From IMG/VR virus record IMGVR_UViG_3300030095_006840, positions 1-64,000 of that record: a stretch of 64,000 bases of DNA. One strand, 5' to 3'. The position numbers were made by a program, and so were the translations under genes. Numbering within the stretch: position 1 is the stretch's first letter; every line of letters begins with the position of its first letter. The notes under the pieces are model-generated. The model saw nothing but the letters and a program-made list of their open reading frames with translations. It was not told the origin of the DNA and ran no database searches. Source of the stretch: a virus. Taxonomy: Duplodnaviria > Caudoviricetes. Of the stretch, positions 18,670-21,429 are shown piece by piece.

Positions 18670-20178
18670 GTGAAAAACGAAATCCTATCACTAGAAGCAA
18701 AATTATTTTTAAACACCCTTTCGGAAAAATTCACTCCACAAATCAAAGCTCTTTTAAGAAAAAGAGATGATCGGATAAACATGACCCCATCTTTTATATG
18801 GGACACTAGAGAAACTCGATTTGGCGAGTGGAAAACTTTACCACCGCCAGAAGAAATTTTAGATAGACGAGTCGAGATCACAGGGCCACCAGTTCGAAAG
18901 ATGATCATCAATGCTCTTAATTCAGGAGCAAATGTTTACATGTCAGATTTTGAGGATTCTAACTGTCCTACGTGGGAAAATTGCCTTGAAGGGCAAGTTA
19001 ATCTCCGCGATGCCGTAAAACGTACCATAGAATATGCAAACCCAAAAAATGGAAAGAAGTATAGTCTAAATGACAAAACAGCTGCTCTGTTTGTGAGACC
19101 AAGAGGTCTTCATCTAATAGAGAGTAATTATCTTGTTGATGGTAGTCCAATTCCTGCTTGCCTCTTTGATTACGGCTTGTATCTCTTTCATAATTATAAA
19201 ACACTTTTAAAAAATGGGAGTCGTCCTTACTTTTATTTACCAAAACTGGAACATTACCGCGAGGCAAGGCTTTGGAATGAAATATTCTCCTTTAGTGAGA
19301 ACAAGTTTAATATGGAGGTGGGAACAATTCGTGCGACTGTATTGATTGAAACATTACCGGCTGCATTTCAAATGAATGAAATATTGTATGAACTAAGAGA
19401 GCATTCTGTTGGGCTAAATTGTGGTCGATGGGATTATATTTTTAGCTATATAAAAAACAATCAAAGCAAGTTCAATGTTATGCCCGATAGAGATCAGGTT
19501 GGTATGGATCAGCACTTTATGAGGTCCTATTCTCAATTGTTGATTCAGACATGCCACAAACGTGGCTGTCATGCGATTGGCGGAATGGCTGCTCAAATTC
19601 CAATCAAAAATGACCCTGAAGCGAATGAGATTGCAATAAATAAGGTTAAGAATGATAAATTAAGAGAAGTCAAAGACGGGCATGATGGGACATGGGTCGC
19701 GCACCCTGCTCTTGTTGGGATTGCGAAAAATATTTTTGATGAGCATATGCCAGATGCAAATCAAATTAGCAAACAACTTTATTTGAATAAAGAAATTGAT
19801 AAAAAAGATCTACTAACTCTTCCCGTTGGGATTTGTTCAGAAAATGGACTTAGAAAAAATATTAATGTTTGTTTTCAATATTTAAATGCCTGGCTTAACG
19901 GAAATGGGTGTGTCCCAATCAACAACCTCATGGAAGATGCAGCAACTGCTGAAATTAGTCGAGCCCAAATATGGCAATGGATAAAGTATAAAGTATTCTT
20001 ATCTAATGGGAAAAGGTTAGAGGAAGAGCTTTTCCATAAAATTTGCGACGAAGAATTAAATTCTTTTAGTGAGTATAATAGATTTGATGAGACAAAAGAA
20101 TTATTTTTAGAATTATGTGTGGCCGAAAAATTGGTTGACTTCTTAACTTTGCCATGCTACGATAAACTACAACATTAA
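18670..20178 (+). CDS. aceB: malate synthase A
   Basis: DRRVEITGP, DFEDS, RPRGLH, LNCGRWDY and LMEDAATAEISR motifs. Confidence 0.97.
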   Translation: MKNEILSLEAKLFLNTLSEKFTPQIKALLRKRDDRINMTPSFIWDTRETRFGEWKTLPPPEEILDRRVEITGPPVRKMIINALNSGANVYMSDFEDSNCPTWENCLEGQVNLRDAVKRTIEYANPKNGKKYSLNDKTAALFVRPRGLHLIESNYLVDGSPIPACLFDYGLYLFHNYKTLLKNGSRPYFYLPKLEHYREARLWNEIFSFSENKFNMEVGTIRATVLIETLPAAFQMNEILYELREHSVGLNCGRWDYIFSYIKNNQSKFNVMPDRDQVGMDQHFMRSYSQLLIQTCHKRGCHAIGGMAAQIPIKNDPEANEIAINKVKNDKLREVKDGHDGTWVAHPALVGIAKNIFDEHMPDANQISKQLYLNKEIDKKDLLTLPVGICSENGLRKNINVCFQYLNAWLNGNGCVPINNLMEDAATAEISRAQIWQWIKYKVFLSNGKRLEEELFHKICDEELNSFSEYNRFDETKELFLELCVAEKLVDFLTLPCYDKLQH

Positions 20179-20193
20179 AAAGGAATAAACAAA

Positions 20194-21429
20194 ATGACTG
20201 ATAGATGGAACAACATTGAACGACCCTATATTAAAGAAGAGGTGCTGTCTTTAAGGGGGACCAAGAAAATAGAATATACTCTTGCAAGGGATGGTGCGTT
20301 GAAATTGTGGGGCCTTCTAAATGAAGAAGACGCAGTTAGGGCGCTGGGCGCTCTTACCGGTAATCAAGCTGTGCAGCAGGTGAAGGCGGGATTAAAAGCA
20401 ATTTACCTCTCAGGCTGGCAAGTTGCGGCTGATGCTAATCTTGCTGGTGACATGTATCCCGACCAATCACTCTACCCAGCGAACAGTGTACCTTCTGTCG
20501 TAAAAAAAATAAATAAGGCATTCCAAAGAGCAGATCAACTAGAGTGTGTTGAAGGAGGTCTTGGAACTGTCACAGATTATTATGCACCTATTGTTGCTGA
20601 TGCTGAAGCGGGTTTCGGTGGACCCTTAAACGCTTATGAATTAATGAAATCGATGATTGAAGCGGGCGCAGCGGGTGTACACTTTGAAGATCAATTAGCA
20701 TCTGAAAAGAAATGTGGACATATGGGTGGCAAAGTGCTTGTCCCAACAAAACAATTTATCAAAACATTAACTGCTGCAAGATTGGCTGCTGATGTTTGTG
20801 ATGTTCCAACAGTTTTGATCGCCCGAACTGATGCAAACTCTGCTAAACTTATCACTTCCGATATAGATGAAAGAGATCATCAATTCATGACAGGCGAGAG
20901 AACACCCGAAGGTTTTTATAAGATTACTGGTGGTCTAGACATGGGAATTGCGCGAGGACTTGCATATGCCCCTTATGCCGATTTATTGTGGTTGGAAACT
21001 TCGACACCTTCACTCGAAGAAGCGCGAAAGTTTGCAGACGCAATTCATGCTAAATTCCCAGGAAAACTTTTAGCATACAACTGTTCTCCATCTTTTAATT
21101 GGGAAAAGCACTTGGACAAAGAAACAATTGCTAAATTTCAAAAAGAGTTGGAAAAAATGGGTTATAAGTTTCAATTTGTAACTCTTGCCGGTTTTCATGC
21201 TTTGAATCACAGCATGTTTACGCTTGCAAAAGATTATAATAAAAATGGAATGGCAGCATATTCAGAACTTCAACAAAAAGAATTTGATGAGCTTGATAGT
21301 GGGTTTACCGCAGTGAAGCACCAAAGAGAAGTTGGAACAGGATATTTTGATAGAATTTCACAAATCGTAAGTGATGGAGATTCTTCGACTTTAGCACTTA
21401 AGGGTTCTACTGAGGAAGAACAATTCTAA
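20194..21429 (+). CDS. aceA: isocitrate lyase
   Basis: Catalytic KKCGH; [28 protein letters not shown]; C-terminal STEEEQF. Confidence 0.98.

Follow-up and report, generated by a model that had tools for sequence, protein, structure and literature searches.

A glyoxylate shunt operon in the genome of a T4-like marine phage and its conservation among related phages

Glyoxylate shunt genes found in a viral contig raise the questions of whether they belong to the virus and what a virus would gain by carrying them. The window analyzed here is a stretch of 64 kb, the first part of a linear IMG/VR virus record of 103,158 bp (G000) that is not classed as a provirus. In this window, a gene for malate synthase A (aceB) is followed by one for isocitrate lyase (aceA). 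The features of the locus are given in Table 1.

Table 1. Features of the aceB-aceA locus, in window coordinates
Feature	Position	Strand	Characteristics
131-aa ORF immediately 5' of aceB	18263-18658	+	No Pfam match; 41-53% identical to the ORF in the same position in L007, L008, L011, and L032
AGGA ribosome-binding site of aceB	18660-18663	+	6 nt 5' of the GTG; direct sequence reading
aceB, malate synthase A	18670-20178	+	502 aa, GTG start; TIGR01344, Pfam, solved structures; gene 196 of TARA_ERS478052_N000008
AGGA ribosome-binding site of aceA	20181-20184	+	9 nt 5' of the ATG; direct sequence reading
aceA, isocitrate lyase	20194-21429	+	411 aa, ATG start; NF011645, solved structures; gene 195 of TARA_ERS478052_N000008
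Candidate sigma-70 promoter, TTGACA-17-TATAAT	21445-21473	+	12 of 12 consensus positions, consensus match only; 16 nt 3' of the aceA stop, before the 71-aa ORF
tRNA-Thr (UGU), phage	21906-21977	+	ARAGORN; Rfam RF00005, 75 bits

The original prediction had described two full-length enzymes with intact catalytic motifs, and both parts of this description were borne out by profiles and solved structures. AceB scored 713 bits against the NCBIfam equivalog TIGR01344 (cut-off of 594.5; profile positions 1-510 of 511), and AceA scored 752 bits against the isocitrate lyase equivalog NF011645, listed alongside TIGR01346 (cut-off of 562; positions 20-428 of 430). Pfam matches were MS_TIM-barrel and MS_C in AceB and ICL in AceA. 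The models of methylisocitrate lyase gave only 84 to 103 bits on AceA, far under their cut-offs of 353 to 354, and those of malate synthase G gave 32 to 38 bits on AceB, for cut-offs of 565 to 989. As judged from these profiles, AceA is an isocitrate lyase (EC 4.1.3.1), not a methylisocitrate lyase or another member of the PEP-mutase superfamily, and AceB is an A-type malate synthase (EC 2.3.3.9), not one of the G type. The two ORFs lie where they had been placed, 15 nt apart (20179-20193), and the claim that each has its own ribosome-binding site holds as well, with an AGGA before both starts.

Both proteins aligned over their full length to solved structures, AceA to the isocitrate lyase 6lrp (648 bits) and AceB to the malate synthase A structures 3cux (570 bits) and 3cuz (520 bits). 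The AceA motifs KKCGH (residues 172-176), DAEAGFGG (136-143), and NCSPSFNW (296-303) are intact and align column for column with 6lrp and 7cmx. We take KKCGH to be the active-site loop carrying the catalytic cysteine and the acidic motifs to bind Mg. In AceB, the motifs RPRGLH (143-148), LIETLP (225-230), GRWDY (252-256), and MEDAATAEISR (421-431) are intact and match those of the E. coli structure 3cuz, in whose chain the aligned Glu, Asp, and Asp are at positions 249, 277, and 446. These motifs presumably supply an Asp and an Arg for catalysis, and a Glu and an Asp as ligands of Mg. AceA does not have the first ~15 to 25 N-terminal residues of the bacterial enzymes (its alignment covers the profile only from position 20 and the solved chains only from residues 16-28). 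This short N terminus, which may affect assembly of the tetramer, is common to the whole phage clade, where the ORFs of the relatives have 409 to 418 aa. Both enzymes are complete, and they are very probably active.

The record is a fragment of a large T4-like marine myovirus of ~179 kb. CheckV estimated a completeness of 57%, which for 103 kb implies a full genome of ~180 kb. PhoH, an endolysin, HNH endonucleases, and glycosyltransferases are encoded within the window, while a T4-type baseplate wedge gene (gp6-like), a primase, and an SbcCD-like nuclease are encoded beyond it. Nearly all genes of the record are on one strand. A related record (L007; 111 kb, 61% complete) encodes a T4-type large terminase. 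The T4 Gp23 capsid family (PF07068) had no matches in the related records, nor in the controls. The G+C content is even across the window (0.33 to 0.43), with 0.37 in the operon and its flanks. On both sides, the operon is flanked by small plus-strand ORFs of about 65 to 130 aa, the first one 3' of aceA encoding 71 aa (at 21485), and a tRNA-Thr lies downstream, in agreement with the setting between small phage ORFs and a phage tRNA that had been described. The aceBA pair forms a single two-gene module that sits in a genuine phage genome, and phage genes border it on either side.

The record has other features of its own. Two giant ORFs stand beside the gp6-like gene. The first encodes 2,577 aa (L003:45-7778, corresponding to G000 64045-71778). 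The second encodes at least 2,808 aa from L003:11575 and continues into L004, where the open-ended frame ends at 1099 (G000 75575 to about 85099). A phage tmRNA was found at 31613-31857 on the plus strand (Rfam RF00023, 111 bits for a gathering score of 47), with the tag peptide ANDNVAISLAA given by ARAGORN; a weaker match to a permuted tmRNA model (31563-31733) overlaps it. Downstream of the operon, a 216-aa ORF (21972-22622, plus strand) overlaps the end of the tRNA-Thr by 6 nt and is kept in all syntenic relatives (47 to 73% identity). Given its weak matches to DUF2490 (E = 3e-9) and to an outer-membrane beta-barrel (7e-4), it may encode a phage outer-membrane protein.

The aceBA observation is real but already known, which removes the novelty implied by the original prediction. 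Nishimura et al. (2017; mSphere, PMC5332604) reported an aceBA operon, together with glycan genes, in TARA_ERS478052_N000008 and claimed it as the first such operon in a complete viral genome. That genome is circular (178,632 bp, G+C of 37.5%) and carries T4-like structural genes and LPS/capsule genes. Table S1G of their paper lists gene 195 as an isocitrate lyase of 411 aa (167296-168531, minus strand) and gene 196 as a malate synthase A of 502 aa (168547-170055). We compared the window with this published gene table, i.e., by coordinates and protein lengths and not by nucleotide alignment. The sum of window and Tara coordinates was 188725 for all genes between 17270 and 22784, and it was one lower, 188724, between 23364 and at least 38504. 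The protein lengths were equal in both (73, 76, 77, 131, 502, 411, 216, 50, 303, 190, 339, 585, 255, and 455 aa). These constant sums and equal lengths show that the window is the reverse complement of TARA_ERS478052_N000008 or of a near-identical genome, and the length and G+C content of the Tara genome agree with this. The two share the 502- and 411-aa genes, the 15-nt gap, flanking ORFs of equal length and spacing for more than 20 kb, the G+C content, and glycosyltransferase and LPS-type genes downstream; they differ in that the Tara genome is a circle of 178.6 kb, whereas the record analyzed here is a linear 103-kb fragment in the opposite orientation. The only difference in coordinates is a single shift of 1 nt between 22784 and 23364. 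Since this interval holds a hairpin with a G run and a T run, the shift is probably a difference in homopolymer length. The hairpin (22804-22827, plus strand) is a G8/T-run terminator that separates the 50-aa ORF from the HNH gene.

A comparison with related contigs showed that the operon is conserved beyond this genome. In IMG/VR, aceB-aceA was found in matching order on four contigs, each from another metagenome (L006, L007, L008, and L011), and likewise on a fifth syntenic contig of 11 kb (L032), which was binned in a metagenome-assembled genome (MAG) labelled Ectothiorhodospiraceae. In all five, the pair lies between homologs of the 131-aa ORF (upstream) and of the 71-aa and 216-aa ORFs (downstream); the 131-aa ORF belongs to the block that these related phages keep together with aceBA. 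L032 additionally shares HNH and UvdE genes with the window. Relative to the window, the proteins of the relatives are 74 to 91% identical for AceA, 65 to 72% for AceB, and 41 to 73% for the flanking ORFs. Synonymous sites are saturated (pS of 0.68 to 0.84), while pN for aceA is 0.08 to 0.10 in comparisons with the four closest relatives and 0.19 in that with L011, and pN for aceB is 0.20 to 0.24. Saturated pS together with low pN points to long vertical inheritance of the pair under purifying selection. From these substitution patterns, we conclude that aceBA is stably inherited in a lineage of ~180-kb T4-like phages.

These relatives also bear on whether the two genes could come from a bacterial contig joined to phage DNA during assembly, or from other bacterial contamination. 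The same databases do hold such cases. The AceA proteins of two viral-listed records (L009 and L010), as well as the AceB of L010, nest in Brevibacillus, suggesting that these records are probably bacterial DNA, and several GenBank "phage" records with aceA or aceB are plainly Salmonella or E. coli DNA. Here, however, the same junctions recur in five independent assemblies and in the circular Tara genome, and the G+C content is uniform. Moreover, the closest bacterial proteins are 75% (AceA) and 56% (AceB) identical to those of the window, compared with 74 to 91% and 65 to 72% within the phage clade. A chimera, which had been named as the finding that would overturn the phage assignment, was rejected on the conserved synteny, the uniform G+C, and the Tara genome, and we regard it as extremely improbable.

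The organization of the locus resembles that of the E. coli-type aceBAK operon in several respects: aceB precedes aceA, the malate synthase is of type A and not G, and the isocitrate lyase is of the short bacterial type. The Salmonella enzymes are 49% (AceB) and 65% (AceA) identical to those of the phage. In contrast to aceBAK, the phage operon has no aceK in the 103-kb record and no adjacent IclR-type regulator was seen; its AceA has a shortened N terminus, and the genes are embedded among small phage ORFs. The AceK family (PF06315) had no match in the record, while the E. coli control was matched, and neither an IclR-type nor another regulator was seen beside aceBA. As the record makes up an estimated 57% of the genome, the remainder could still hold regulator genes. 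At the candidate sigma-70 promoter 3' of aceA, a new transcription unit would begin; such promoter matches are consensus-level only, and their count was not above that of shuffled sequence. No comparable sigma-70 site was found directly 5' of aceB, so aceBA is probably transcribed by read-through from the small ORFs upstream.

How common are these genes in phages? Among 50,697 GenBank phage records, one genuine phage, C48C1, carried an isocitrate lyase and none carried a malate synthase, which agrees with the original view of the pair as uncommon. The remaining matches came from Salmonella or E. coli DNA in entries labelled as phage. Phage C48C1 (OQ984149.1) is a complete, circular genome of 156 kb classed in the T4-like family Kyanoviridae. 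Its isocitrate lyase is full length (L005:7995-9236, corresponding to 44175-45416), 57% identical to that of the window, and annotated as "hypothetical protein"; no malate synthase was found in this phage. In IMG/VR, 26 loci had a close AceA, and the presence of an adjacent AceB was checked in detail at 11 of them and in L032. The gene order is aceB-aceA in the lineage of the window and aceA-aceB in two huge-phage lineages (L019/L020 and L022/L023, on contigs of 80 to 252 kb). The largest viral AceA clade consists of 8 contigs of up to 361 kb with no AceB nearby. The viral-listed records L009 (IMGVR_UViG_2606217113_000009) and L010 (IMGVR_UViG_3300038738_000024) have no flanking genes in common with the phage.

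Before the 2017 paper, both aceA and aceB were found in Pacific Ocean viromes by Hurwitz et al. (2013). More recently, huge phages were shown to carry isocitrate lyase and malate synthase genes, adjacent in 20 genomes (bioRxiv 10.1101/2025.02.27.640493). The phage described here is smaller than the 200-kb threshold of that study. Both those huge phages and C48C1 carry enzymes of the same shunt but belong to lineages different from that of the window.

Phylogenies of AceA and AceB, which had been proposed as a way to find the donor, were built but did not resolve one. The AceA of the window belongs to a clade of six exclusively viral sequences (99% support), and its AceB belongs to one of five, likewise exclusively viral (100% support), which has a stem of 0.8 changes per site and a skewed composition. 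No bacterial sister group was resolved for either protein, and the backbone of the AceA tree is without resolution. The best bacterial AceA matches (70 to 75% identical) are scattered over Bacillota, Chloroflexota, Myxococcota, Verrucomicrobiota, and others, in a sample biased by requiring an exact 8-residue word shared with the query. The nearest is from Brevibacillus (75%), and the best among 400 sampled Pseudomonadota is 71% identical; this last sample includes an unpublished genome (G388) that was left out of the trees and on which none of the conclusions depends. The AceB proteins of L019-L023 nest within Polyangiaceae (96% support), indicating that viral contigs acquired the pair at least twice. 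Beyond what was published in 2017, the present analysis thus adds the conservation of the pair across a phage lineage, at least two acquisitions by viral contigs, and a donor search that ended without resolution.

What could the operon do during infection? Its place would be in the early or accessory part of the genome of this T4-like marine myovirus. When expressed, isocitrate lyase would convert host isocitrate to succinate and glyoxylate, drawing it away from isocitrate dehydrogenase, and malate synthase A would condense glyoxylate with acetyl-CoA to give malate. With both genes expressed from the phage, the infected cell would gain a glyoxylate bypass or see its own widened, and since the phage encodes no AceK or other regulator that we could identify in the record, this bypass would be independent of the control that the host exerts on its own shunt. 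The cell would in this way retain, in the form of C4 units, the acetyl-CoA that comes from the breakdown of lipids, acetate, or storage polymers, with two acetyl-CoA giving one C4 acid without CO2 loss. The C4 units may proceed through oxaloacetate, aspartate, and PEP to nucleotides and sugar nucleotides. Such a route to gluconeogenesis, dNTPs, and the glycan island is a reasonable reading of textbook biochemistry. The gain in carbon would suit a phage that builds a 179-kb genome and many sugar nucleotides (for its glycan island) from a starving marine cell. We consider it quite likely that this is a genuine phage aceBA operon, in the same genome as TARA_ERS478052_N000008, which widens the host glyoxylate bypass when expressed.

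A stronger version of this role supposes a host without its own glyoxylate bypass. In such a cell, the phage would supply the complete pathway as a new one and direct host lipid or storage carbon to the ~20-kb glycan island, turning acetyl-CoA into nucleotide sugars. A weak hint comes from the MAG in which L032 was binned, which has a matching G+C content and no AceA other than that of the phage. This MAG (2.7 Mb) is labelled "uncultured Ectothiorhodospiraceae bacterium," and its two largest contigs have a G+C of 37 to 39%, like that of the phage. The contig itself (L032/L147; CAYMMQ010000074.1, 11,170 bp) is syntenic with the window from 17.5 to 24.3 kb, with 72% nucleotide identity and 91% identity for AceA, and this synteny identifies it as phage DNA. 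Neither a tmRNA above the cut-off nor a gp6-like gene was found in the MAG. The MAG was not retained as the host, the match being one of G+C only; L032 is a probable mis-binned phage contig, the alternative being a weak host lead. A host devoid of its own bypass seems unlikely to us.

Alternatively, the benefit could fall in a lysogenic or pseudolysogenic phase, where a persisting phage would use aceBA and its surface-glycan genes to raise the growth and stress tolerance of its host, and not for lytic replication. T4-type architecture, however, is typical of strictly lytic phages, and a search of this record and four related ones, all of them fragments, gave no tyrosine integrase. Together, these two points make a lysogenic-phase benefit less likely, and the IMG/VR classification of the record as linear, not provirus, also speaks against it. 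The idea was put forward by Nishimura et al. (2017; PMC5332604) on the basis of the LPS and capsule genes and of a zeta-toxin homolog (gene 40 of the complete genome, outside the 103-kb record), although they found no other sign of lysogeny. Overall, we see this conversion as improbable.

Finally, the pair may be kept for a purpose other than the net gain of C4 units, such as lowering the production of NADH and reactive oxygen species and the need for iron-containing respiratory enzymes during infection, or removing glyoxylate derived from phytoplankton glycolate. The shunt reactions skip the two NADH-yielding decarboxylations. In addition, many viral contigs carry aceA without aceB (Phage C48C1 and the 8-contig clade, whose members reach 361 kb), suggesting that selection does not always act on the two genes together. 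In the lineage of the window, on the other hand, aceB and aceA are always adjacent and co-oriented, which fits the use of a complete bypass, even if carbon conservation and other physiological aims are not separable from sequence. We hold another purpose to be rather unlikely and favor the widening of the host bypass with retention of carbon.

A phage with both enzymes of the bypass is a clear example of a virus that would rewire central carbon flow, beyond the nucleotide and photosynthetic metabolism of its host. The case was published in 2017, and work from 2025 extended it to huge phages, so that the value of the present analysis lies in confirmation and context. For the ocean, such phages may matter for the share of host carbon that is respired versus built into virions.
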